A DNA stretch of 32,000 nt from Ktedonobacterales bacterium (GCA_030167145.1 CP126532.1:2430001-2462000), one strand, 5' to 3'. Counted from the stretch's first letter, positions 4,069 through 31,374 are shown. Program-made: numbers and translations. Notes: generated by a model from the sequence alone, not told the origin.

Positions 4069-4098
4069 TTGACACCGCATTATCTATCACATTATACT
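4069..4098 (+). promoter_or_regulatory. IS-internal promoter for tnpA, TTGACA-N18-TATACT, predicted leaderless mRNA
   Basis: -35 TTGACA at 4069-4074 and -10 TATACT at 4093-4098. The A of ATG 4105 lies exactly 7 nt after the -10. The second element has identical geometry. Confidence 0.45.
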
Positions 4099-4104
4099 GG
4101 TTGC

Positions 4105-4500
4105 ATGAGAGATATGCGGAGCAACAACAATGTCGTCTACGTCTGCCGGTATCATGTGGTGTTCTGCCCTAAATACCGACGGAAGGTGTTGACGCCACCA
4201 ATAGATGAGCGCCTGAAGGTTATCCTTGCTGAGCAGATAGAGCGATGGGGGCAAGACCTCATCGAAATGGAGGTCATGCCGGACCACGTGCATCTGCTGA
4301 TGGGATGTGACCCGCAGTTTGGCATTCATCGGTTGGTGAAGCTCCTGAAGGGCTACAGTTCTCATGCACTGCGTGCGGAGTATCCCGCGTTGAAGCGCCG
4401 CCTCCCGTCCCTGTGGACGAATAGCTATTTTGTGGCAACGGTAGGCGGAGTGACGCTGGAAACCCTCAAGCGGTACGTGGAAAACCAGAAGGGCAAGTAG
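4105..4500 (+). CDS. tnpA: IS200/IS605 Y1 (HUH) transposase TnpA
   Basis: VVYVCRYHVVFCPKYRRKVL, HUH motif PDHVHLL, and catalytic Tyr context LWTNSYFVATVGG. The track ORF begins at TTG 4069, which is the -35 box, so I chose ATG 4105. Confidence 0.9.
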   Translation: MRDMRSNNNVVYVCRYHVVFCPKYRRKVLTPPIDERLKVILAEQIERWGQDLIEMEVMPDHVHLLMGCDPQFGIHRLVKLLKGYSSHALRAEYPALKRRLPSLWTNSYFVATVGGVTLETLKRYVENQKGK

Positions 4501-4503
4501 GGC

Positions 4504-5625
4504 ATGGGGCAGACAGTCCGCAAGACGTACAAGTACCAACTGAACCCAACACCTAAGCAAGAACACGTGTTGGCAAGCGCCTTGTGGCATTGTCGCATGC
4601 TCTACAATACCGCGTTGGAGCAGCGCAAGGCGTGGTGGCAGCGTGGGCAAGGCAAGAGTGCAACCTACTACCAGCAGAAAGCGGAGTTGCCCGACCTGAA
4701 AGCGTCCAGTCCCGAATATGCTGAGGTACATTCACAGGTCTTGCAGGACGTGCTCTTACGGCTTGAGCACACGTTTGCCGCCTTCTTCCAGCGTATCAAA
4801 GACGGGCAGACGCCGGGCTATCCCCGCTTTCAAGGGCAGAACCGCTATCACTCCTTCACCTATCCACAATACGGCAATGGGGCTATGCTGGATGGGGGCG
4901 TGTTAAGTCTGTCGAAGGTCGGGCGTATTCCCGTTCGGCTCCATCGCCCCCTACAAGGTACACCCAAGTCCGTCACGATTTCGCATGAGGCAGATGGCTG
5001 GTATGTCTGCTTCTCGTGCGCTGAGGTGCCCGTACAGCCCTTGCCACTGACTGGCGAAGAGACGGGTATTGATGTGGGGCTGAAGTCCTTCCTGGTGACG
5101 GCGGAGGGGACATTCGTCGAGAACCCACGGCACTATCGCCGCGACGAGAAACGGCTGAAGAAAGCGCAGCGCGTCGTATCGCGGAGGAAGAAAGGCAGTA
5201 ATCGCCGCAAGAAAGCGGTGAAATTACTCGCCAAGCGACACCAGAAGGTGCGGCGGCAACGGCAGGACTTTCACCACAAAACGGCGCTGGCGTTGGTCCG
5301 CCAATACGATGTGATCTATCTCGAAGACTTGCGGGTTCGCAATCTGGTACGCAACCGTCACCTCGCCAAGAGCATCAGCGATGCCGGGTGGACGCAGTTT
5401 CGTATCACACTTGAGTACAAGGCAGCATGCGCCGGTAAACAGGTGATTGCGGTTGAGCCTGCCTACACCTCCCAGGACTGTAGTGGCTGTGGCGCACGGA
5501 TACAAAAGACGCTCTCCGTGCGCACCCATGTCTGCACGTCCTGCGGACTGGTCATGGACCGCGACGAGAATGCGGCCAGAAATATTCTCAGGTTCGGGCA
5601 GAACCTTCGTGGAGCGGTGGCGTAG
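4504..5625 (+). CDS. tnpB: TnpB (IS605 OrfB) RNA-guided endonuclease, RuvC triad intact
   Basis: N-terminus KTYKYQLNPTPKQ. RuvC D in GIDVGLK, E in IYLEDL, zinc ribbon CSGCG..CTSCG, and D in MDRDENAARNI. Confidence 0.9.
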   Translation: MGQTVRKTYKYQLNPTPKQEHVLASALWHCRMLYNTALEQRKAWWQRGQGKSATYYQQKAELPDLKASSPEYAEVHSQVLQDVLLRLEHTFAAFFQRIKDGQTPGYPRFQGQNRYHSFTYPQYGNGAMLDGGVLSLSKVGRIPVRLHRPLQGTPKSVTISHEADGWYVCFSCAEVPVQPLPLTGEETGIDVGLKSFLVTAEGTFVENPRHYRRDEKRLKKAQRVVSRRKKGSNRRKKAVKLLAKRHQKVRRQRQDFHHKTALALVRQYDVIYLEDLRVRNLVRNRHLAKSISDAGWTQFRITLEYKAACAGKQVIAVEPAYTSQDCSGCGARIQKTLSVRTHVCTSCGLVMDRDENAARNILRFGQNLRGAVA

Positions 5626-8866: not shown

Positions 8867-10105
8867 CTAACACGGCACGGGCACATAGGCTTCGATGAGC
8901 GTGGCACCAGCGCCGCCCCGGCTGACGTTACTCGTGCCCACCGCGAACACATCACCCGCCGCATCAGCGCTCACGGCGTTCAAGCTATCCATGTACACGT
9001 TTGCCGGATCGGGCGTGTCGAGCGTGTTCCAGGCTGCGGTTGTGCCGCTCCACGCCTCCGCCAGCGTGCGCTGCATCTGGTCGCTGTCAGTCTGCACACC
9101 CACAGCGACCACGGCTCGCACTGCCGGATCAGACGTGATAGCGTACAGTGAGTTGCTCGTACCAGGAGCGAAACCTGGACTGGTTACCTCGTTCCACCGG
9201 GAGCCATCCCAATGCAGCAGCAGCGGATTGCCGTGATGGCCACCCGCCGCCCACACATCACGAGCCGAGACCGCTGTGACGGCATGCAAAGCGGCCTCAC
9301 CCATAGAATAGGCCATCACCGTCCACCGCGTGCCGTCCCAATGTTCGATCAACGTCGCGCCACTGGTATCCTTGCCGGTGTACATATAGCCCACCGCCCA
9401 GGCGTCGCCGTCCGCAGCGATGGTCACGCTGGATAAGTCGTCTTGCGCGTGGGTGTGGTCCACTATCGGGCCGTTTGGGCTGGGGACGATGCTCCACCGC
9501 GCGCCATCCCACCGTTCGATCAGCGTAGCCTGGGAGGGGATCTGTGGTGAGGATGACGCCTCCCCGTGCGTCGTTGATCCCACCGCCCATGCCGTGCCAC
9601 CCGCCACCGCAACCGCTTGCAAAGCATTATCCACGCCGGGCACATTGGGGCTGGGCACGACCGCCCAACTGGTCCCATCATAGTGCTCGATCAACGTCCG
9701 CCGGTATGCGCTATTGTACCAAATCGCGCTATAGGCGCCGACCGCCCAGATGTCTGTTGCTGAGGCAGCCGCCACGGCGCTCAGACCGCCATACACATTC
9801 GGCCCAGGCACGATGCTCCACGTTGTGCCGTCCCAATGCTCGAACAGCGGCTTGCCACTATACGAAGAGCCAACAGCCCAGGCATCGGTGCGCGAAATAA
9901 CCGCGACACCCTGAAGCGTGTTGTCCGCCGCCACAATGTTGGGGCTGGCTACGATGCGCCATGCGCCGCACTTCGAGGTGGAGGCCGCCAGCGGCGATGC
10001 GTTCCACGGCAGCCGACCATAGCGCGCTTCGCTCACCCCCACAGCAACCACGCCCATCACCACAACCAGCGCCACACACGCCACGATAATCCGGCGACGA
10101 CTCAC
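8867..10105 (-). CDS. Membrane-anchored beta-propeller-like repeat protein
   Basis: N-terminal TM segment IIVACVALVVVMGVVAVGV. Six to seven repeats of the form (F/I)EHWDG..W..VPSPN...L..V......WAVG. GTG start with GGAG 7 nt upstream. Confidence 0.75.
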   Translation of the reverse strand: MSRRRIIVACVALVVVMGVVAVGVSEARYGRLPWNASPLAASTSKCGAWRIVASPNIVAADNTLQGVAVISRTDAWAVGSSYSGKPLFEHWDGTTWSIVPGPNVYGGLSAVAAASATDIWAVGAYSAIWYNSAYRRTLIEHYDGTSWAVVPSPNVPGVDNALQAVAVAGGTAWAVGSTTHGEASSSPQIPSQATLIERWDGARWSIVPSPNGPIVDHTHAQDDLSSVTIAADGDAWAVGYMYTGKDTSGATLIEHWDGTRWTVMAYSMGEAALHAVTAVSARDVWAAGGHHGNPLLLHWDGSRWNEVTSPGFAPGTSNSLYAITSDPAVRAVVAVGVQTDSDQMQRTLAEAWSGTTAAWNTLDTPDPANVYMDSLNAVSADAAGDVFAVGTSNVSRGGAGATLIEAYVPVPC

Positions 10106-10215: not shown

Positions 10216-11421
10216 TCAATGTTCCGGCGTATGCAGCGCGCCTGCAAGCACGATTGGCCCAGTGGGGCTGGGGCTGCCGCCAGCGGGTTCGGGCGTCACC
10301 GCCAGCGTATCGAAGTCGAGCGGCGGCTCGGCGGCATGCACCACGCTCGCGCCGTGCCCATGCGCGTCCAGCGCGAAGAGCGTGTTCGGCTGCGGCTGTC
10401 CTTCGCGCAGCAGCCACACCTGATACGCGCGGTCCGGGGCAAGCCGCGCCAAACCTGCGCTCACCAGCACCCCATCATGCCGCGAGCGCGCGCTGATGAA
10501 CCGTGCATGCGCATCCCGCCCCTGCGCCGTTCCCGGCACATTGACGATCACGCAATCCGGCTCCGCCAGCAGATCGCGCAGCAATTCGCCCGTCACATCA
10601 CGCTCCGCGCGCCTGCCGAAGAGGCCGCGCAAGAAGCCGCCCACGGATGCGCGCGGCTCAGCCGTCTCGGCTTCCGCGTCTGCCATACGTGTCGCTTGCT
10701 CTCCCGGTGCGCTCGCCTCGCCAAGTTCGCCCGCCAGCACCACCGGCCCGGTCGGTCCCGCGCTGCCCGTGAGCGGCTCTGGCGTGACGGCCAGCGTATC
10801 GAAGTCGAGCAGCGGCTCGGATGTGCGTACAACGCTTGCGCCGTGGCCGTGCGGGTCAATCGCGAAAAGCGCGTTAGGTTGCGGCTCACCCCCGCGCAGG
10901 AACCACACCTGATACGCCTTATCCGCCGCCAGCGGCCCCAGCCCCGCCGTCAGCAGCACCCCCTCGCGCCGTGACCGCGCGCCAACGAACCGCGCGCTCG
11001 CGCCCGCCGCGTGCTCCGTTCCCGGCACGTTCACGATCACGCAATCCGGCTCTGCCAGCAGGTCGCGCAATAACTCGCCCGCCAGATCAGCCGCATCCTC
11101 ATCCGCCTCACCGCCCGGCACCGCGCGCACGACATCTCTGGCGGCGTCACCGGCGGCACGCGCGCTCGCCGCTTCCGCGCGGACACGCGCCAGCACGCGC
11201 ACCCGCAGCGCCGGCGGCGTGGCCACCTGGGGCGCGGCCAGCAGCAGCAGATCGGCGCTGGCGCGGGCCTGAGCCAGCAGCGCCCGGCAGCGGGCGCACC
11301 CTTCCACATGCAGATCCACCGCCGCCACCTCCTCCGGCTCCAGCGCGCCGAGGACGAAGGCGTCTATCAGGTCGTCTACGTGTGTCTCTGGTATCTCTGG
11401 TGTCTCTCGCATGTCCATCAT
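10216..11421 (-). CDS. zf-HC2 anti-sigma factor with two tandem RskA-C-like domains
   Basis: N-terminal H-x3-C-x2-C (HVEGCARC). ATGA start/stop overlap with the upstream ECF sigma gene. Two ~118-aa copies contain AYQVW(F/L)LR.G.PQPN.LFA.D.HGHGASVV...DFDTLAVTPEP. Confidence 0.85.
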   Translation of the reverse strand: MMDMRETPEIPETHVDDLIDAFVLGALEPEEVAAVDLHVEGCARCRALLAQARASADLLLLAAPQVATPPALRVRVLARVRAEAASARAAGDAARDVVRAVPGGEADEDAADLAGELLRDLLAEPDCVIVNVPGTEHAAGASARFVGARSRREGVLLTAGLGPLAADKAYQVWFLRGGEPQPNALFAIDPHGHGASVVRTSEPLLDFDTLAVTPEPLTGSAGPTGPVVLAGELGEASAPGEQATRMADAEAETAEPRASVGGFLRGLFGRRAERDVTGELLRDLLAEPDCVIVNVPGTAQGRDAHARFISARSRHDGVLVSAGLARLAPDRAYQVWLLREGQPQPNTLFALDAHGHGASVVHAAEPPLDFDTLAVTPEPAGGSPSPTGPIVLAGALHTPEH

Positions 11422-12023
11422 AGGTATCCGTCCACACCTGCCGCCAGCAATAGCTCGCGCAGGCGCTGCAATCCAACACGAATCCGGCTTTTCACTGTGC
11501 CCAGCGGATCACCCAGCGCGGCGGCGACCTCCGCCTGTGAGAGTCCGCCGAAGAAGGCCAGTTCAATCGCGGCCCGCTGCGCCTCTGGCAGCTTCGCCAG
11601 CGCCGCGCGCACAGCAACGGCGCGTTCACGCAACGCCGCGAGTTGTGCCGGATCGCTCTCGGCGCTCGTATCGGCCAGCGTGGCGCTCTCGGCCTCCCAA
11701 TCGGCGTCGGGCGCGGTGACGGGGCGGCTCTGGCGGCGGCGGATCTCGTTGAGCGCCAGATTGTGCGCGATGCGCAGTAGCCACGTGCTCAGCCGTCCGC
11801 GTTGCGCGTCAAAGCTGGCGGCGCTGCGCCAGAGCCGCACAAACACCTCTTGCGTCAGTTCTTCAGCCGTGGCGCTGTCACGTACAATGCGCAGGCACAG
11901 CGAATATACCGCCTGGCCGAAACGGTCGTAGAGCTGTCCGAGCGCCTCTTCGTCGCCACGCGCGACCCGTTGCGTCAGCAGCAGATCATCGTCTGGCGGC
12001 GAACCCGACTGAGCACTCTCCAC
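11418..12023 (-). CDS. ECF (sigma-70 family group IV) RNA polymerase sigma factor
   Basis: Region 2 (AEELTQEVFVRLWRSAASFD..STWLLRIAHNLALNEIRRR) and region 4 (LPEAQRAAIELAFFGGLSQAEVAAALGDPLGTVKSRI). GTG start with GGAG 6 nt upstream. Confidence 0.9.
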   Translation of the reverse strand: MESAQSGSPPDDDLLLTQRVARGDEEALGQLYDRFGQAVYSLCLRIVRDSATAEELTQEVFVRLWRSAASFDAQRGRLSTWLLRIAHNLALNEIRRRQSRPVTAPDADWEAESATLADTSAESDPAQLAALRERAVAVRAALAKLPEAQRAAIELAFFGGLSQAEVAAALGDPLGTVKSRIRVGLQRLRELLLAAGVDGYL

Positions 12024-13194: not shown

Positions 13195-14061
13195 TCACTC
13201 CCCATCATCGCCAAAGAGTAGCGACTGCTCGGTTGATGAGGCGAGCCGCTTCTGCTCGTCGCGCCTGATCTGCTCAATGCTCTTGGTGGGTGTTGGCAAC
13301 TGCTCAGGGGGTGTGCCGCCCAGGTCTTCGATGGTCTCGCGTACACGCTTGCCCACATCGTAGTGGGTTTGGTTGGCGGCGTCTTTGCCCTGGATGCCCT
13401 CGCGGCGGATCTTCGCTTCGGTCTGCGTAATGCGGAAGAAATTCGCGGCCAACTCTTCGCTGCCCATCCAATCGAGCACTTTCTGCCCGCGCTTCAGCCC
13501 CTTGCGTGCCGCGATGTCCTGCGCCGTCTCGCCGTCGTAGAGGCCACGATAGCCGTGATTCTGAAACGTTGCGAAATCTTGCTGGGTAACGACGCCCGCC
13601 TCATACACGGCGGCAGCCAGATCCACATTGCGCGCGGCGGCTTGGTCGCGCAGCACGATGCGCCGCTGCGCTTCAGTGAGGCCTGTCAGTTCTCCGGCCA
13701 ACTCCGCCCGGCGCGTCTGGATGGCGAAATAGGTCTGACCAAGCGCGACGATGGGCTTCTCTGGGTCCGCGTTCTGCACCACAAGGTAGCAGGCATAGCG
13801 AGACAAATGCCAATCCTCTACTTCACGTATAGCTCCTGAGCCGAGCGTGACCATATTAACATCAGTGTTAAAATGGTCTGTGATGCGCTGGCCGCTGTTC
13901 TCGCATGCAGTCTGTGCGCGCGCAATGACGCCCATGAAGCGCTGCCAGCCACTGTAATCGAGCACCTTTGCCAGCTCACGTGCGCTCCAATACTCGCCGC
14001 CGCCTTCTGCCTCGTGGCGGATCTGCTCAAATGGCGATACACGCTGTGTGTTGTCGCTCAT
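13195..14061 (-). CDS. dinD: DNA-damage-inducible protein D (DinD family)
   Basis: Collinear with my recollection of E. coli DinD: PFEQIRHE..YWSARELAKVLDYS, SRYACYLVVQNADPEKP, GQTYFAIQTRRAEL, FQNHGYRGLY, GSEELAANFFRITQTE, LGGTPPEQLPTP. Start set at ATG 14061 (MSDNTQ, GGGGGAGAGG upstream) rather than the track start at 14130. Confidence 0.9.
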   Translation of the reverse strand: MSDNTQRVSPFEQIRHEAEGGGEYWSARELAKVLDYSGWQRFMGVIARAQTACENSGQRITDHFNTDVNMVTLGSGAIREVEDWHLSRYACYLVVQNADPEKPIVALGQTYFAIQTRRAELAGELTGLTEAQRRIVLRDQAAARNVDLAAAVYEAGVVTQQDFATFQNHGYRGLYDGETAQDIAARKGLKRGQKVLDWMGSEELAANFFRITQTEAKIRREGIQGKDAANQTHYDVGKRVRETIEDLGGTPPEQLPTPTKSIEQIRRDEQKRLASSTEQSLLFGDDGE

Positions 14062-14304
14062 GCCAAACCTCTCCCCCAAGCCCGCCACACGTGAGCGGCC
14101 AAACACAACGGCCACGCGCACCCATCCCATGTGAGAGACAGGTCCACGTGGCCGGAATATCCCAAAACCACTGTGCGAACGTCGTGTCCGTCTGATAGAC
14201 TAGACTCAGGCGTGCCCTGCCAACTTCAGGATGCGCTCAGCGGTCCGGGCAGTGTTACGAGCACTGCGCGGGCCGCGCCCATTTGTGCGGGCTTGTTATG
14301 TACC
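14062..14304 (-). promoter_or_regulatory. Conserved ~240-nt 5' leader of dinD (copy A of a repeated leader)
   Basis: Aligns with 21365-21615. It has a 66-nt 100%-identical core (14095-14160) and further identical blocks, e.g. tctgatagactagactcaggcgtg and caggatgcgctcagcggtccgg. See findings. Confidence 0.6.
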
Positions 14305-14333
14305 AGTATACCATAACGCGATGCGATTGTCAC
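14305..14333 (-). promoter_or_regulatory. Extended -10 promoter GTGACA-N17-(TGG)TATACT, copy A
   Basis: Minus strand reads gtgacaatcgcatcgcgttatggtatact. Near-identical copies lie at 21616-21644 and 22913-22941. Confidence 0.6.
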
Positions 14334-14417: not shown

Positions 14418-15197
14418 CTACCTGAACAGCGGCCAGGGAATACCGAGATGTGCCGCCGCAATGTGTAGAATACCGCTGATGATTACCCCTGCCACGAGGA
14501 CGGCCAGGAGCATAGCGCAACCGAACCAGCCGCCCACATATCCGCCGGAAATAGCCGTGGCGTAGGCGAGCGTCGCGCCAACATACACCAGGAAACAACC
14601 GTCAAGCACAAGTGAGAGCACATTCGCCGCGATTGAAATGGCGGGCGCGAACGAGAGCGCGTGAGTTTGCTGAAGCAGCGCGGCGAGGCCGAGTGTGCAA
14701 AGCATAGTCAGCAGCAGCACGCAAACTAGGCCGACCTGTGCGAGCGCCCATGGACGCAATACGCGATAAACACGCGAACCGCTCAAGCGTGGATGCTGGC
14801 GCGGAACGAACAAAGCTGCTACCAGCGCCAGCACCGGCGCGATGAAGATGTAGGCGACCATGTTGCTGAGCGCGACAGTGTAGATATGGGCAGCGGTCGG
14901 GCGTAAAAGATATTCGCCATGATCGAGGGTGAGGCTTGACGTATACAATGTCCCAATACTATTGGCGATGCCCCAGATCGGCGCGCTCACCACAAACGAC
15001 GCAACAACCCACCACCAGCGCGTGATCTGCGCCCATGCGGCCATCGTTCGCGGTGTCGGATGCGTGCCCACATGCCACCAGGCACCCAGCAGCGTTCCGG
15101 TGGCAGGCGCAACTGGCTCGAAGCGGGGTAACGACTGGGATATAGATGCCGCATCACCTTGCGCCGCGCCAGGCCCGCCAGCAATGTTCTGCTCCAT
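14418..15197 (-). CDS. Polytopic integral membrane protein, unknown function
   Basis: Multiple hydrophobic segments. Start set at ATG 15197 (GGAGGTGGAG 5 nt upstream). Confidence 0.7.
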   Translation of the reverse strand: MEQNIAGGPGAAQGDAASISQSLPRFEPVAPATGTLLGAWWHVGTHPTPRTMAAWAQITRWWWVVASFVVSAPIWGIANSIGTLYTSSLTLDHGEYLLRPTAAHIYTVALSNMVAYIFIAPVLALVAALFVPRQHPRLSGSRVYRVLRPWALAQVGLVCVLLLTMLCTLGLAALLQQTHALSFAPAISIAANVLSLVLDGCFLVYVGATLAYATAISGGYVGGWFGCAMLLAVLVAGVIISGILHIAAAHLGIPWPLFR

Positions 15198-15268
15198 GCA
15201 CACTCCACCTCCACAGTAGCAACCTATCTGTTCCATCCCATTATCACCGCCGTGTCAACACCGCCCGC

Positions 15269-20452: not shown

Positions 20453-21364
20453 CTAGTTGTCTGGTGTGCCAGTTGCGCTGCCCGGCTCAGCGGCAAAGAG
20501 TTGTGGTTGTTTCGCGCTGGCCGTCAGGCTCTTCGCATTCTCGCTGCTCACCACTGGGCGGCCTGTCTCGGCTTCGATCTGCTGGCGCGCCGAGCCAGCA
20601 ATCTCCCCAGCCTTCTGCGCGTCCCCCTGCAACTCGATGAATCCTTGGCTATCGTGCGCTTGATGCAACGCCGTCGCGGTCGCCTCAGAGAGCATCGTCA
20701 GCGCCAATTCCAGCGAGGTCATATTGTCGCGCAGATTCTCGCGCGGCTTCAACTGCTTGATCTGCTTATGCTCGTTCGTAGAAGCATCGAACGCGCCACG
20801 ATGCAAAATCTCGGAGAGGACGGCGAACTCGCGTCCCTCCTCAGCGCCCCGGTCGCGCCACTCGGTCGTCAGGTCGTCGCGCACCGTGATGCCCCGCAAG
20901 CGCAGTTCGATCCATTCCTCGTCGTAGCCGCGTTTGCGGTAGAGCAGCCGCAACGAGTCCGCCGCCACACGCGGATTGTCGAGCTCTTCCAGCCGTTGCA
21001 CGCCAACCCGCGCCAACCATTGCTTGAACGGCTCAGCCTTCGGCGACGGAATGCTCTGGATGATGCGCAGCAGCGTCTCCGTATCCGCCGCATCGGTCAG
21101 CCGCTGTTTGCCGTCAAGCGCTGCCATTTTCAACTGTTGGCATTTTGCCAACACTTCAACAAACCCTTCGTCTTGAATCCGCCGCTTCATATCGGCCCAA
21201 TACATCCGGGGCTTGGGCGTGTCGGTCAGCAGCCCCACGACATCAATCACACTGAAGAACCACCGCCCCTCGTGCCACACCCGCCGTACTTGCTGCTCCG
21301 CCTGCTCGTCGAGCAGATCCAACCCCATCGCGTCGTTCCGGTCATCATCGCTGTTGTTGGTCAC
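20453..21364 (-). CDS. Bro-N domain protein with DinD-like C-terminal module (DinD paralog)
   Basis: Bro-N: VRRVWHEGRWFFSVIDVVGLLTD...AEPFKQWLARVGVQRLEE. C-terminal: YRKRGYDEEWIELRLRGI..LRDNMTSLELALTMLSE, parallel to the DinD C-terminal region. GTG start at 21364 with GAGGAGGG 7 nt upstream. Confidence 0.8.
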   Translation of the reverse strand: MTNNSDDDRNDAMGLDLLDEQAEQQVRRVWHEGRWFFSVIDVVGLLTDTPKPRMYWADMKRRIQDEGFVEVLAKCQQLKMAALDGKQRLTDAADTETLLRIIQSIPSPKAEPFKQWLARVGVQRLEELDNPRVAADSLRLLYRKRGYDEEWIELRLRGITVRDDLTTEWRDRGAEEGREFAVLSEILHRGAFDASTNEHKQIKQLKPRENLRDNMTSLELALTMLSEATATALHQAHDSQGFIELQGDAQKAGEIAGSARQQIEAETGRPVVSSENAKSLTASAKQPQLFAAEPGSATGTPDN

Positions 21365-21615
21365 GCGAAGACCCTCCTCAAGCCCACCAGCCACAGGCGG
21401 CCAAACACAACGGCCACGCGCACCCATCCCATGTGAGAGACAGGTCCACGTGGCCGGAATATGCTCGATACCCCAAATACCTCTGTGCGAACGCCGCGTC
21501 TATCTGATAGACTAGACTCAGGCGTGTCCTGCTTCTTCCAGGATGCGCTCAGCGGTCCGGCAGTGCGTCCAACACTGGTCGGGCCGCGCCCATGTGTGTA
21601 AGCTTGTCGTAGGCC
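21365..21615 (-). promoter_or_regulatory. Conserved ~250-nt 5' leader (copy B of the repeated leader)
   Basis: Aligns with 14062-14304. The 66-nt identical core is at 21397-21462. Confidence 0.6.
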
Positions 21616-21644
21616 AGTATACCATAACACGATGCAATTGTCAC
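21616..21644 (-). promoter_or_regulatory. Extended -10 promoter GTGACA-N17-(TGG)TATACT, copy B
   Basis: Minus strand reads gtgacaattgcatcgtgttatggtatact. Confidence 0.6.
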
Positions 21645-21710: not shown

Positions 21711-22565
21711 TCACCGCTGACGCCGCTGCTCAGCAGCCGCTATCCGCGCACGGAACCACGACGCCACCCGCAGCCACTCATTCTCCGCAATGTCACTGTA
21801 TTTGCCAACGTGAAACGCTTCGTTCAGCTCGCCATAGATCGTGGCGTAGGCGCTACCCGTCAGCTCGCTCAGCCGTCTCGCCGACGCCTTCACCGTCGCC
21901 TGATGCTCCGGCGTCAGCGTTTGTGGTCCTAGCCGGTCGAGAATCTCCGGCACCAACCGCGTAATCTCTTCGACGCTCTCCAACCGGCTTTCCACCGACC
22001 CACGCCACCGCTCGATATCCGCCTGCCAGTCTATGTATGCGAGCATCCCTTGATGGTATGCGCGCCAGGCTGAAAGCGGCGCGCCCTCGCCCGGCGCTTC
22101 CGGCTGGGTGATCGGGTCGGCGGGTACGAGATTCACGGGCGTAGGCAGTTCGGCCCGCGGCTGCGAAAAGTGACGATAGAGCACATCGGCGGCCTCGCGA
22201 CGGAATGCTCGAATCGCCGCACGCTTCTCTGCGGTAAGTTTACCCGTCCGCACACCAGTGAGCCAAAGCGGAATCCCCCATGCTGCCAGTACATCCATTG
22301 CCTGCGTCTCGCCGGTCAGGTTATCAGCCACAAGCGCGAACAGAAGGTGATCGGCAAGCACGTCGTCGGTACGGATACGCCGAGCCTGCGATGCGCGATC
22401 TAAGTCCAGTGCGGTACAGAGGTCAGTAAGTACCGCCGCGATGCTGCCATCAGGCAATCGTACCGCGCGTATGTCATGCCCGTAGAAGGTTACGACATCG
22501 CTTGCCAAAGGTTGAACCACCTGTCCGTTGCTCTGCCCTGGCTGCCCGTTTCCATTTTCATTCAC
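21711..22565 (-). CDS. Phage antirepressor-type protein (P22_AR_N-like N-terminus, ORF6C-like C-terminus)
   Basis: VVTFYGHDIRAVRLPDGSIAAVLTDLCTALDLDRASQARRI..IPLWLTGV..KRAAIRAFRREAADVLYRHF, then C-terminal YATIYGELNEAFHVGKYSDI. GTG start at 22565 with AGGAG 8 nt upstream. Confidence 0.75.
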   Translation of the reverse strand: MNENGNGQPGQSNGQVVQPLASDVVTFYGHDIRAVRLPDGSIAAVLTDLCTALDLDRASQARRIRTDDVLADHLLFALVADNLTGETQAMDVLAAWGIPLWLTGVRTGKLTAEKRAAIRAFRREAADVLYRHFSQPRAELPTPVNLVPADPITQPEAPGEGAPLSAWRAYHQGMLAYIDWQADIERWRGSVESRLESVEEITRLVPEILDRLGPQTLTPEHQATVKASARRLSELTGSAYATIYGELNEAFHVGKYSDIAENEWLRVASWFRARIAAAEQRRQR

Positions 22566-22912
22566 GGTTCTCGCTCCTATCCTCCACAACAATCAGACAG
22601 CAGTCATTTTGACTGCTGGTAGCTCGCTATACCATGCCAAGCCAGACAATACAAGGCTTTCCCCAAGGGTCTATCATGGGGAGTACATGTCTGCACGCCT
22701 CCTCCTGGGATATGGAGACGCTGAAGTGAGGAATCGGATCGGGGGAAAGCAGAGATGCCTGCGGCTTGGGCCTGCGATGTCAGATGAGTCTATGCTATTG
22801 CCCGTGCCGCATGCTATGCTGCTACAAGCCCTGTCCGCTGCTACCGTCAGCGCCGGGGTCAGAGCGCCGTTCGTGTTGTCAGCACGGACGGCGTTCGCAC
22901 ATTGATGTGGCA

Positions 22913-22941
22913 AGTATACCATAACGCGATGCGATTATCAG
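22913..22941 (-). promoter_or_regulatory. Third copy of the shared promoter (CTGATA-N17-(TGG)TATACT)
   Basis: Minus strand reads ctgataatcgcatcgcgttatggtatact. The spacer is identical to copy A. It overlaps the stop codon of the upstream FAD oxidoreductase gene. Confidence 0.5.
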
Positions 22942-25177: not shown

Positions 25178-25882
25178 CTACTCCTTCAGCATGTCCGCCA
25201 GCACTGGTGTATGCTCGCGCACATGCAGGATACTGCGCCGCAGCGCCTTCCGCAATGTCCAGCGTTCGCCGTCGTGCTCGACGATGCGCTCACGTTCCTC
25301 CGGCGTGGTCGCGCGGAAGCGTGCAATGCTGGCCTGCCGCACCTGCTGGAAACGCTGCTGAAGCGTGCCAGGCAACTGCCCGATTGGCGTCACCACTGGT
25401 TGAAGCTCGATGCGCGAAACCAACCAGAGCTGTGTCTGCAACATATGGGTGAGCACCCCGCGCCCCGACTCACCCACCGCACCCACGCGATCTAGCGCGG
25501 CATCATCCGCAGCTTCGATCAGCGCCAACAGGTCGGCGTAGGACCAATCCAGCAGCGAGAGATACCAGTCGAGATCTTCGCCGGTGATGATGCGCTGCCC
25601 CGGCTCGAAGATTGCGCCCACGTGGGCGCGATCAAACCCGCCCACGCCGCGCGTTTCGCGCACCACCACCTCAAAGATGCCATTGACGACCGGCATGTAC
25701 TCATCGTGCGCCGCCAGCCAGGCGTGATACGCTGGAATCGCCTCGGTCAGCAGCCGCACCGCATCCGCCTCGCTTGGCCCATACGCGAAGCAGCCCGGCA
25801 ACTCCGCAAGCTGCGCCAGCGCCCTGCCATCCGGCGCGACCTCGACATAGGCATCGTAGACGACCTTCTCATCGGTGTTCAT
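25178..25882 (-). CDS. HicB-like (UPF0150) N-terminal domain fused to a DinB/DinB_2-like helical-bundle domain
   Basis: The N-terminus YVEVAPDGRALAQLAELPGCFAYGPSEADAVRLLTEAIPAYHAWL is HicB-like. The C-terminus ...LTHMLQTQLW...ILHVREHTPVLADML is DinB-like. Start at ATG 25882; the track extension overlaps uvrB. Confidence 0.6.
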   Translation of the reverse strand: MNTDEKVVYDAYVEVAPDGRALAQLAELPGCFAYGPSEADAVRLLTEAIPAYHAWLAAHDEYMPVVNGIFEVVVRETRGVGGFDRAHVGAIFEPGQRIITGEDLDWYLSLLDWSYADLLALIEAADDAALDRVGAVGESGRGVLTHMLQTQLWLVSRIELQPVVTPIGQLPGTLQQRFQQVRQASIARFRATTPEERERIVEHDGERWTLRKALRRSILHVREHTPVLADMLKE

Positions 25883-25898
25883 AGGCGTCGCTTTTCCT

Positions 25899-27878
25899 CT
25901 ATTCCAGCACCGCGCGCCGCAACTCCACAATCTGGTCGCGCAGCGCCGCCGCCTTCTCGAACTCCAGCTCTTTCGCCGCTTTGCGCATCTGCGACTCCAG
26001 TTCTTTGATGAGCCGCATCGCCTCGTCTTTGGGCATCGTCGCAATCGAGACACCGCCGCCCGCCTCCTGAGTCTCCTCACTGACGCGGAAGCGGTCAGAG
26101 AGCGCGCGCACCTCTTTCTTGATGCTCACCGGCGTGATACCATGCTCCTCGTTGTAGCCCGTCTGGATGCGGCGGCGGCGGTTCGTCTCGTCAATCGCGC
26201 GGCGCATCGAAGCCGTCACGTTGTCCGCGTACATCACCACCGTGCCTTCGGTGTGGCGCGCCGCGCGCCCGATGGTCTGGATCAGCGAGCCTTCCGAGCG
26301 CAAGAAGCCCTCTTTGTCGGCGTCCAGAATCGCCACCAGCGACACCTCCGGCAGATCCAGTCCCTCACGCAGCAGATTGATCCCCACTACCACATCATAG
26401 ACGCCCAGCCGCAGGTCGCGCAGAATCTCGATGCGCTCCAGCGTATCAATCTCCGAGTGCAGATAGTGGACCTTTACGCCCATCTCTTGCAGATAGTCGG
26501 CCAGATCTTCGGACATCTTCTTGGTTAGCGTCGTCACCAGCGCCCGCTGGCCCTTATCGGTACGCTCGCGAATCTCAGCCAGCAGATCGTCTATCTGTCC
26601 CTCGGTCGGGCGCACGCTCACCTCTGGATCGAGAATGCCCGTCGGGCGGATGATCTGCTCGGCCACCACGACGCTATGCTCATATTCATATGGTCCGGGC
26701 GTCGCGGAAACGAAGACCGCCTGGGCGAAGTGTCGCTCGAATTCCGCGAAGGTCAGCGGACGGTTATCCAGCGCCGAGGGCAGGCGGAAGCCGTAATCCA
26801 CCAACACCTGCTTGCGCGCCCGGTCGCCGTTGAACATCCCCCGCACCTGCGGCAGCGCGATATGCGACTCATCCACCACCAGCAAGTAATCGTCGGGCAT
26901 GTAATCCAGCAACGTCCAGGGCTGGTCGCCAGGCTGGCGGCCCGCCAAATGGCGCGAATAGTTTTCGATGCCGGAACACAAACCCGTCTCGGTCAGCATC
27001 TCGATGTCAAAGTTGGTGCGCTGGCGCAGCCGCGCCGCTTCCAGCAGTTTGCCCTCGCGGTCCAGCTCTTGTAGCCGCACCGCCAGCTCGTCTTTGATGC
27101 CCGCGATAGCATGGTTCAGCCGTTCCTGCGTCGTCACCCAGTGCTTGGCGGGATAGATGTCCAGCCGGGCGCGCTGCCCCAGAATCTCGCCGGTCAGCGG
27201 ATCAATCTCCACCATCCGCTCGATCTCATCGCCGAAGAACTCGATGCGCACTGCCAGATCTTCATACGACGGATAGATCTCCAGCACATCGCCGCGCACG
27301 CGGAACTTGCCGCGCACAAAGTTCTGGTCGTTGCGCTCGTACTGGATGTCGGCCAGGTGCCGCAGCACGCGGTCGCGGCGGCGAGTCTCGCCGGCCTTCA
27401 ACGTCAGCACCACCTCGCCATACTCCTCCGGCGAGCCGAGGCCGTAGATGCACGACACCGACGCGACGATCAGCACGTCGCGCCGCTGGAAGAGACTGCG
27501 CGTGGTGGAGAGCCGCAGTTTCTCGATCTCTTCGTTGATCTGGCTCTCTTTTTCGACGTAGGTATCCGTGCGTGGGATGTACGCTTCCGGCTGATAGTAA
27601 TCGTAGTAACTGACGAAGTATTCGACGGCGTTCTCAGGGAAGAACTCTTTGTATTCGGCGTAGAGCTGCGCCGCCAGCGTCTTATTCGGCGCCAGCACCA
27701 GCGTCGGCTTCTGCACCTGCGCCACCACCTGCGCCACGGTGAATGTCTTGCCGCTGCCCGTCACGCCGAGCAGCGTCGAGCACTTGTTGCCACCGCGCAC
27801 GCTCTCGACGAGCGAACCGATGGCTTCGGGCTGATCGCCGGTCGGCGAAAACGGCGCCACGACCTCGAAATCAGGCAT
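25899..27878 (-). CDS. uvrB: Excinuclease ABC subunit B
   Basis: [20 protein letters not shown], Walker [11 protein letters not shown], helicase motifs, and the C-terminal UVR domain [14 protein letters not shown]. Start at Met16 of the track ORF. Confidence 0.95.
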
Positions 27879-28080
27879 AATCGCCTCTTTCGCCCGCGCT
27901 CTCTGGCCAGCGGGCAGGCACATACTGTGTTAGTGTAACGTATTGTCTCCACACGAAAAGCGTACCCGTACTATTCTGTACGACCGTGTCCGAAATGGAA
28001 AGCGCCTCATCATTGCGGCGCGCATGAGATACAGCATGAGACACGAAGTGCCCGCGCACCAGTGAGCGCGCGAGCACTTG

Positions 28081-30206: not shown

Positions 30207-30420
30207 ACACGGGACATAATCACCGTGACTACTCTCCCGCATACATGCGGGAGCTTCTAGGAGCAAGCCCCAAGGTGTGTAGCCCCACACCTAAAATGTT
30301 CAGACTGGCGTTGAAATCACGGTCGAGAACCACCCTGCAGCAGGGGCAGGTATAGATGCGGTCTGCAAGGGAGAGCGGTTGCCGATGTCCACACTGCGAG
30401 CAATCTTGACTGGTATACGC
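30207..30420 (-). ncRNA. Predicted omega-RNA of the second TnpB (scaffold overlaps the tnpB 3' end; guide acggtgattatgtcccgtgt)
   Basis: By analogy with characterised systems. A perfect 8-bp hairpin at 30234-30253 lies inside the last tnpB codons. The guide is the 16-20 nt beyond the inferred right end (30226 downward). The 5' end was not determined. Confidence 0.35.
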
Positions 30421-31374
30421 GGGGTTCACTGCCACATACTTTCGACCGGCCCATGCTGCCTTGTACGAGAGGGTGGCGGCGAACTGACTCCACGCCGCGT
30501 CATGAATGCTCTTGGCGAGACAATGGTTGTGCATCATCCGGTTGACCGACAAATCTTCGACGGCGATGAGGTCGAAGCCATCAACGATACGGCGGCTGTG
30601 CTGGTGGGCGAAGTCGCTCCGTCGCCATCGAATCCGCTCATGCACCCGCGCTACCACCTTGCGCCGCGTGGCGCGCTCCGATGTGCCCTTTTCTTCCTTG
30701 CTGAGACGCCGCTGTACCTTCGCCAGAACCGTTTCTTCGGCACGGAAGAAACGCGGGTTAGCGATTTCCAGCCCAGTCGAGAGCGTGGCAAAGGTCTTCA
30801 AGCCCACATCAATCCCCACCTGCTGCCCGATCTCTGGCAGTGGGGGTGGCTCAGCACATTCACACGAGAAGCAGACATACCATTTGCCGGTACTGCTGCG
30901 GCTGATCGTCGCCGTCTTGGCTGTGCCTTCCCATTGGCGATGGAGTACGATCTTTACCAAGCCGACGCCATGCAACCGCAGACGCCGCGCATCCGCATCC
31001 AGCGTGCAGCCTACTGGCACCTGGGGATAGGTGAGGCTGGCGTAGCGCCCCTGGCCGCGAAAGCGCGGATAACCAGGTTCTCGCTCACCGGCCTTCATAC
31101 GGCGGAAGAACGCCTGAAACGCCAAGTCAATGCGGACCGCGACATTCTGCAACACCTGCGATTGGACACTAGCCAGTGTGGGTCGCTCAGCTTTGAGCAC
31201 AGGCAATGTCGCCTGCTGGTCGTAGAGGCGCAGCGATTCTTGCCGCTGCTCCCAGGCGTCGCGCCGGGCAGCCAGCAGTTCATTGTAGAGCCAGCGGCAC
31301 TCCTCAAGCTGCTGTGCGAGGAGGCGCTGCTGCTGCTTGGTCGGGTACAAGCGGTACTTAAACGTCTTACGCAT
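30229..31374 (-). CDS. tnpB: TnpB (IS605 OrfB) RNA-guided endonuclease, RuvC triad intact
   Basis: MRKTFKYRLYPTKQQ, GIDVGLK, IAVEDL, CSQCG..CPCC, LDRDFNASLNI. Confidence 0.9.
   Translation of the reverse strand: MRKTFKYRLYPTKQQQRLLAQQLEECRWLYNELLAARRDAWEQRQESLRLYDQQATLPVLKAERPTLASVQSQVLQNVAVRIDLAFQAFFRRMKAGEREPGYPRFRGQGRYASLTYPQVPVGCTLDADARRLRLHGVGLVKIVLHRQWEGTAKTATISRSSTGKWYVCFSCECAEPPPLPEIGQQVGIDVGLKTFATLSTGLEIANPRFFRAEETVLAKVQRRLSKEEKGTSERATRRKVVARVHERIRWRRSDFAHQHSRRIVDGFDLIAVEDLSVNRMMHNHCLAKSIHDAAWSQFAATLSYKAAWAGRKYVAVNPAYTSQDCSQCGHRQPLSLADRIYTCPCCRVVLDRDFNASLNILGVGLHTLGLAPRSSRMYAGE

Follow-up and report, generated by a model that had tools for sequence, protein, structure and literature searches.

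A repeated leader hairpin with terminator-like features upstream of DinD and BRO-N family genes in an uncultured Ktedonobacterales bacterium

Genes and repeated leaders at the locus

The DNA considered here (the window, 32,000 nt) is part of a 5.07-Mb contig from an uncultured Ktedonobacterales bacterium (Chloroflexota). A gap of 356 nt separates a membrane-protein ORF (14418-15236) from dinD. Within it, on the minus strand, lies a 66-nt core that occurs twice in identical form (copy A, 14095-14160; copy B, 21397-21462), on the same strand and 7.3 kb apart, with no such match in shuffled sequences. The product of dinD matches a protein recorded for this genome at 100% and qualifies as a true DinD equivalog, scoring 374 bits on NCBIfam NF008573 (cut-off 242). 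The gene behind copy B had been taken for a paralog of dinD, but its product is not DinD and belongs to the BRO-N family; the two proteins have only the Bro-N domain in common, with no meaningful similarity beyond it (E = 0.01). A third copy, D, lies to the right of the window, within the next 10 kb (L085 7489-7727, about 33.6-33.9 kb in window coordinates), ahead of another BRO-N gene that also lies outside the window (L085 7728-8654). The Bro-N/DinD genes sit among housekeeping genes, with no recognisable prophage around them.

Public versions of DinD begin 23 codons further upstream, at an ATG within the core (one such protein, P0001, has 311 aa), and this upstream start is probably a miscall, the real start being the ATG at 14061. 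A coding role for the core was considered and rejected, as the in-frame upstream ATGs do not share a frame between copies A and B, and a strong Shine-Dalgarno sequence precedes the real start. The longest ORFs likewise open at ATGs within the hairpins described below (14109-14130 and 21411-21427, minus strand), in frames that differ between the copies. For the BRO-N gene of copy B, the JGI call begins upstream of the GTG at 21364 but downstream of the hairpin and is probably a miscall as well.

The similarity of copies A and B extends well beyond the core, to a unit of about 290 nt that runs from a promoter-like GTGACA-17-TATACT to the start codon; upstream of the -35 element the similarity is at the random level. 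Outside the core, the A and B leaders agree at 72% of positions, or 74% when only the 5' part is counted. The promoter 20-mer GCATCG(C/T)GTTATGGTATACT is present at three places in the window but never in shuffled sequences. Copy D carries a promoter identical to that of copy A, a leader 73% identical to both A and B, and a core that is 89% identical. We refer to this promoter-leader unit, as represented by A, B and D, as the T1 cassette.

A second variant, T2, combines the same promoter and a homologous 5' leader with a different 3' part and precedes a P22-antirepressor-like (P22_AR_N) gene; a profile of the T1 promoter and leader matches it at E = 5e-10. About 470 kb away, a second DinD paralogue is preceded by a leader that is homologous to T2 but lacks that promoter (L001 2590-3000). 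The ten-base stretch CGUUCGCACA of T1 (14171-14180 and 21483-21492, minus strand) complements UGUGCGAACG at about 22888-22897 (minus strand) in T2, and an interaction in trans is conceivable. The coordinates of these features are collected in Table 1.

Table 1. Positions of the cassette features and associated genes in window coordinates
Feature	Position	Strand	Remarks
Copy A promoter	14305-14333	-	GTGACA, 17 nt, TATACT; TG before the -10; predicted start near 14297-14299
Copy A closing helix P0, 5' strand CAAGCCCGC	14287-14295	-	Pairs with 14077-14085
Copy A Pa and hairpin H1	14240-14276	-	GCGG..CCG..GCAGUG [loop] CACUGC..CGG..CCGC
Copy A hairpin H2	14210-14236	-	GCG..UCCUG [7-nt loop] CAGGG..CGC; stem kept, loop variable
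Copy A hairpin H3	14190-14209	-	Variable; different sequence in copy D, yet still a hairpin
Copy A terminator-like hairpin	14109-14154	-	19 bp, 4 G.U, one G.G mismatch, loop UCACAU
Copy A U-rich tail UUGUGUUUGG	14099-14108	-	Ten bases, directly 3' of the hairpin
GGCCGC, 3' arm of the originally predicted P2	14095-14100	-	Candidate partner in P2
Copy A closing helix P0, 3' strand GCGGGCUUG	14077-14085	-	Abuts the Shine-Dalgarno sequence
Copy A Shine-Dalgarno GGGGGAGAGG	14068-14077	-	ATG 14061-14059, six bases on; dinD CDS to 13195
Copy B promoter	21616-21644	-	GTGACA, 17 nt, TATACT
Copy B leader	21365-21611	-	P0 21598-21606 with 21379-21387; H1 21552-21587; H2 21522-21548
Copy B leader, 3' part	21365-21611	-	Hairpin 21411-21456; U-rich tail 21401-21410; Shine-Dalgarno 21372-21379
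BRO-N family gene of copy B	20453-21364	-	Protein 67% identical to that of the gene of copy D
T2 cassette	22566-22941	-	Same promoter (22913-22941), homologous 5' leader, different 3' part; before the P22_AR_N gene
T2 terminator-like hairpin	22598-22618	-	Tail UCUGAUUGUU, just ahead of the ribosome-binding site
P22_AR_N gene (P22-antirepressor-like)	21711-22565	-	Preceded by the T2 cassette

The core hairpin and the fold of the leader

Read as RNA from the minus strand, the core of copies A and B folds into one long hairpin, in which a lower stem of 10 bp (CGGCCACGUG with CGCGUGGCCG) is followed by a 1x1 G.G mismatch and an upper stem of 9 bp (ACCUGUCUC/GGGAUGGGU) around the loop UCACAU. Its energy, -35.8 to -37.3 kcal/mol, makes it the most stable of all 50-nt hairpins in the 32 kb, both strands considered; the mean is -13.7 (sd 4.9). 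Because of its four G.U pairs the reverse complement folds to only -20.3 kcal/mol, and this strand asymmetry points to an RNA transcribed from the minus strand and not to a DNA palindrome. A DNA-level palindrome, CCACGTGG, had been a candidate in its own right; copy D does not preserve it, and the G.U pairs favour an RNA reading.

Comparison with copy D bears this out. The core had been described as invariant, which holds between A and B, but copy D differs at 7 of the 66 positions: two changes fall in the 5' flank, one in the loop and one, G to A, in the tail, where it leaves the U count unchanged; in the lower stem a C to U turns a C-G pair into U.G; at the mismatch a G to U turns G.G into U.G, giving a stem of 20 uninterrupted pairs; and a C to U falls within GGCCGC. 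The 3' arm of the hairpin is unchanged. Thus both stem substitutions keep or add pairing by way of G.U, and with the 3' arm constant they benefit the sense RNA only; the reverse complement of copy D drops to -8.8 kcal/mol. Function "at nucleotide resolution", which had been read into the core, is overstated, as seven changes are tolerated in copy D and those in the stem are pair-keeping or pair-making.

The core nonetheless evolves more slowly than the rest of the leader in each of the three pairwise comparisons, with identities of 100, 89 and 89% against 72, 67 and 67% for the remaining leader (p = 1e-8 to 2e-4; Fisher for A/B). Since the flanks are only 72% identical, the identity of 66 nt between A and B is far above expectation (p about 1e-8), and since the core is also the part best conserved towards copy D (p = 2e-4), this identity is not merely a recent conversion tract. 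We conclude that the core is a genuine RNA feature, specific to one strand and under selection.

Directly 3' of the hairpin lies a U-rich tract, so that a stable GC-rich sense-strand stem-loop and an immediately following U-rich tract, two sequence features of an intrinsic terminator, are both present. The tract, UUGUGUUU, has U in six of eight positions and is interrupted by two G. On a decaying tail score after the TransTermHP method, implemented for this analysis, it reaches -3.82, within the top 0.3% of the 15-mers of the window and close to the -3.9 to -4.2 of the reference tails of a hairpin near 2223-2272. That hairpin is strong, separates convergent ORFs, has a U-rich tail on each strand, and is likely a bidirectional terminator. 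A terminator scan reports copy D as terminator-like (20 bp, a loop of 6, tail TTGTATTTGG) and misses copies A and B, apparently because of the single 1x1 G.G mismatch. Terminator-like sites across the window as a whole are no more frequent than in shuffled sequences, and a stem of 19-20 bp is longer than is usual for a terminator. The hairpin and tail follow the sigma-70-like promoter at a distance of about 200 nt, and about 40 nt separate them from the ribosome-binding site, so that a predicted terminator lies between promoter and coding sequence, in the same order in A, B and D. A promoter is predicted upstream in all copies, and the interval from tail to start codon is too short to hold one. 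Such a combination, the strongest hairpin joined to a U-rich tail, characterises intrinsic terminators and suggests that transcription would end here.

The three T1 leaders share a consensus fold, a closed multi-branched domain in which helix P0 encloses Pa/H1, H2, H3 and the terminator-like hairpin. The 5' strand of P0, CAAGCCCGC, begins two to four bases from the predicted 5' end and its partner is GYGGGCUUG; one of its pairs appears as G-C, A-U and G.U across the three copies, and two others change from C-G to U.G. One pair of Pa changes from G-C to C-G in copy D, the loop of H1 varies between copies, and a comparable hairpin is found in the T2 leaders. The consensus has 73 pairs with 95% of cells paired, 6 pairs show double changes (a number reached by 21 of 500 shuffles), and its covariation score is 0.183 against 0.133 (12 of 500). 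With three copies, all from one genome, this covariation is thin, and we regard it as suggestive and not as proof. Since P0 spans the terminator-like hairpin, the read-through RNA appears to be under selection. A further helix of a two-copy model, P3 (CGGACACGAC with GUUGUGUUUG), was discarded because it is lost in copy D. No LexA/Cheo box was seen in the promoter or leader when the sequence was read by eye.

All five leaders contain a conserved AUG (AUGGGCGCG or AUGUGCG) that opens a uORF of 7-18 codons (14280-14282, 21591-21593 and about 22897-22899, all on the minus strand, and L001 at about 2636). The peptides are not conserved, that of copy B is frame-shifted, and the uORFs have no Shine-Dalgarno sequence; in copies A and D the uORF stop codon and the 5' arm of H2 overlap.

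Distribution and reuse of the cassette

Roughly 80 kb of the genome was read. In it, the five cassettes all have the same orientation, promoter first and ribosome-binding site last, ahead of Bro-N/antirepressor-type genes, T1 before a DinD gene and two BRO-N genes, and T2 before the P22-antirepressor-like gene and the second DinD. Identity is 93-100% in the promoter and 73-79% in the leader, whereas the DinD and BRO-N proteins encoded downstream are unrelated beyond the Bro-N domain.

Searches elsewhere gave no second genome. An exact 24-mer of the core had no match in viral contigs and an exact 20-mer none in metagenome contigs; the promoter 20-mer gave one chance match, inside a Singulisphaera coding region, in a set of genome contigs without this genome. 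The leader had no blastn match among phages and plasmids, T1 and T2 had none by nhmmer and blastn among 80 metagenomic DinD loci, and a six-frame chimeric protein query for spurious ORFs called over the leader also found none. The cassette is absent from orthologues of the BRO-N gene of copy B in other Ktedonobacterales (76-79% protein identity) and from a 73% relative; the orthologues have instead a leader of about 70 nt behind a related -10 region, without the T1 element. It is absent, too, from the closest same-genome paralogue of the gene of copy D (76% protein identity). Absence from both orthologues and paralogue indicates that the module was gained or lost independently of the gene tree. 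T1 represents a new sequence family, though a familiar kind of element, and so far comes from a single genome. The idea that dinD genes generally carry terminators in their leaders was considered and dropped, as upstream hairpins elsewhere could not be distinguished from the terminators of upstream genes.

Highly similar segments of promoter and 5' UTR before non-homologous genes of one genome were described by Nijveen, Matus-Garcia and van Passel in 2012, and regulatory RNA motifs may travel with such putative mobile promoters (PMC3575422). The promoter-leader cassette described here fits this phenomenon of reused or mobile promoters, with the differences that the unit spans about 290 bp from the -35 to the start codon, that it serves one functional gene class, and that it comes in two variants, T1 and T2, which share promoter and 5' domain. 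A MITE- or REP-like repeat is unlikely, given the uniform orientation before one gene class within the roughly 80 kb covered and the lack of likeness to IS200/IS605 ends. A relation to the end hairpins of IS200/IS605 elements was considered separately and rejected, as there is no resemblance. A complete IS200/IS605 element (Y1 transposase and TnpB) lies at 4069-5625 on the plus strand and a solo TnpB gene at 30229-31374 on the minus strand; further TnpB genes occur elsewhere in the genome (L088).

Proposed attenuation and its alternatives

The anatomy of the sequence, its sense-strand specificity, its conservation pattern and the reuse of the cassette before non-homologous genes are directly observed, and they lead us to propose that the leader is an attenuator with termination at the tail by default and conditional read-through, a reading to which we give about an even chance. 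For this reading we infer three things, namely termination, control of read-through and an antiterminator. A sigma-70-type promoter would start the RNA a few bases before the 9-bp strand CAAGCCCGC, the nascent RNA would fold hairpins H1, H2 and H3, and the 19-20-bp G.U-containing hairpin with UUGUGUUUGG next to it would present an intrinsic-terminator-like signal. By default RNA polymerase would halt at the tail and an RNA of about 200 nt would be released. Under some condition, the input being perhaps a protein, a ligand or a translating ribosome, polymerase would read through, possibly aided by an upstream strand that seizes the 5' arm of the terminator. In the read-through RNA the 5' end would then pair with GYGGGCUUG before the Shine-Dalgarno sequence and close the leader, with the ribosome-binding site at its foot. 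With one cassette before DinD, BRO-N and P22-antirepressor-like genes, these genes would be co-regulated.

The best candidate for such an upstream strand is the 3' strand of H2, CAGGGCACG, whose consensus CAGGRCACR could pair with YGUGKACCUG of the terminator 5' arm (5+4 bp). The substitutions of this arm in copy D are matched in the candidate antiterminator (C-G becomes U-A, and G.G or G.A becomes U-A), which is what a two-state element would be expected to show; the helix has one G-C to A-U double change, but with three sequences only, the statistics have no power (197 of 500 shuffles). A second upstream strand, AUGGGCGCG, can pair nearly as well with the same arm, and in folds of truncated transcripts the choice of partner differs among the copies. 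In the search for a sensor, no Rfam family matched, whether at gathering scores across the entire window or at E <= 10 in the three leader regions searched. Riboswitches usually show their lowest conservation in the terminator. Here the hairpin is the most conserved part of the leader, and a protein-recognised or sequence-specific element therefore fits better than a simple platform.

There are several known systems of comparable layout. Rho-independent leader attenuators, for instance riboswitches, T-boxes, RAT/antiterminator-protein leaders and leader-peptide systems, have the same order of promoter, structured leader, GC-rich hairpin with U-tail and ribosome-binding site, and share an upstream strand able to compete for the 5' arm of the terminator; T1 differs from them in matching no known sensor in Rfam, in its 19-20-bp stem, and in having the terminator as its most conserved part. 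The c4 RNA of phages P1 and P7 (immI operon; C4, RF01695) and the sar/ant system of P22 resemble T1 as structured RNAs directly upstream of, and co-transcribed with, antirepressor-type genes (Bro-N, P22_AR_N). The c4 RNA is closed by a helix joining both ends, as in T1, and in phage P1 it acts in trans on the ant operon. Unlike C4, T1 gives no covariance-model match at gathering scores or at E <= 10, and unlike the c4/sar systems it has no loop complementary to the ribosome-binding sites in all copies and sits in a housekeeping-gene setting. SymR (RF01809), the antisense RNA of the SOS-induced symE, shares the setting of a damage-inducible gene, and its model aligns end to end with the antisense of the first T2 hairpins (22827-22899, plus strand) at 30 bits, against a gathering score of 61; unlike SymR, this match has no terminator tail, and it lies outside T1. 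It is probably a similarity of shape only.

The general idea of the original prediction, a functional RNA element in the leader read from the minus strand, survives, and "attenuator" is probably the right word for it; its regulatory character was seen correctly but the element was mis-assembled. The helices proposed there, P1 (14154-14147 with 14116-14109) and P2 (14115-14110 with 14100-14095), are both correctly located and can be drawn, P2 indeed in all three copies, where the C to U change in GGCCGC leaves a G.U pair. They were to alternate, with a freed CCUGUCUCUC masking the Shine-Dalgarno sequence as a translational switch, and this we consider very improbable. P1 is merely the lower 10 bp of the 19-bp hairpin; P2 is worth -9.3 kcal/mol and has a pair probability of about 1e-6, and the fold that contains it lies 8.5 kcal/mol above the minimum (-28.8 against -37.3), with P1 transcribed first. 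Among shuffled flanks, 23% yield a helix that equals or betters P2, and across the three copies five of its pairs are invariant and one is changed on one side only. The supposed P2 loop is better read as the U-rich tail UUGUGUUUGG of the terminator-like hairpin, and the supposed P1 loop, CCUGUCUCUC, is in the 19-bp fold a base-paired strand of the upper stem, which stays closed even when P2 is imposed as a constraint. As to masking, the best partner of the ribosome-binding region is the 5' arm of the hairpin in copy B (-20.7 kcal/mol) but lies elsewhere in copies A and D, and the predicted accessibility of the Shine-Dalgarno sequence varied with the amount of coding sequence included in the fold and was set aside.

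A stand-alone sRNA would have the identical anatomy, a promoter, then structure, then a terminator-like hairpin, and the roughly 200-nt RNA might act in trans, for example on sibling leaders, with Bro-N expressed by leak-through. The core is conserved in sequence beyond structure alone, as this would predict, and the conserved, unpaired CGUUCGCACA of T1 could pair over all its 10 nt, without a mismatch, with the 5' end of the T2 leader. Set against this are a chance expectation of about 0.08 for such a complementarity, the failure of the Rfam C4 model to match even at E <= 10, and P0, which ties the 5' end to sequence past the terminator with the best covariation of the set, so that read-through looks selected; we judge an sRNA unlikely. 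Similarly improbable is a constitutive stability or processing element, in which an RNase III-type site or a protective hairpin would, together with P0, set mRNA half-life or translation. Going by RNase III substrates, a 19-20-bp duplex is about the length needed by double-strand-specific RNases; the 5' end is hidden within P0, and neither is the U tract perfect nor is there a clear enrichment of intrinsic terminators across the window. But such an element leaves unexplained why a conserved U-rich tail in the top 0.3% follows the strongest hairpin in all three copies, and why T2 has a terminator-like hairpin too. It is decidedly doubtful that the core is without function, a repeated or mobile DNA segment whose 66-nt identity marks a recent gene-conversion tract. 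The spacing of A and B on one strand, the inverted ends of the cassette (CAAGCCCGC and GCGGGCTTG), its absence from the nearest relatives' orthologues and the closest paralogue, and the IS200/IS605 elements within the window would all suit such an origin; yet the core is also the best conserved part towards the more distant copy D, the stem changes are pair-preserving and strand-specific, the five cassettes all point the same way, promoter to ribosome-binding site, towards genes of a single functional class, and there is neither similarity to IS ends nor a visible target-site duplication.

Returning to the attenuator, a bolder version of it, to which we assign a small probability, is that T1 and T2 form an undescribed class of conditional-terminator leaders, in which H1/H2 and the CUGAGC/CUGACC junction would sense a stress-related protein or metabolite, with a small DinD/BRO-N/antirepressor-like regulon in Ktedonobacteria and a spread among unrelated genes as a self-contained promoter-sensor-terminator cassette. 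DinD and BRO-N family proteins are very common and poorly understood, and to our knowledge almost no RNA-based regulation has been described in Chloroflexota. If the hairpin does terminate conditionally, it would offer a first handle on the control of DinD and BRO-N in this phylum and would be a clean example of a complete promoter-sensor-terminator module copied before non-homologous genes, even if the practical value of an element from a single uncultured genome is limited for now.

Other features of the window deserve mention. A few kb from the Bro-N/DinD genes, at 25178-27923 on the minus strand, lie uvrB and a weak DinB_2-like ORF; the region upstream of uvrB contains TATACT and lacks the shared promoter/operator sequence. 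At 10216-12023 on the minus strand an ECF sigma factor gene adjoins that of an RskA-type anti-sigma factor, and internal direct repeats of two families (D1 and D2) are present in the anti-sigma gene and its neighbour at 8867-10105.
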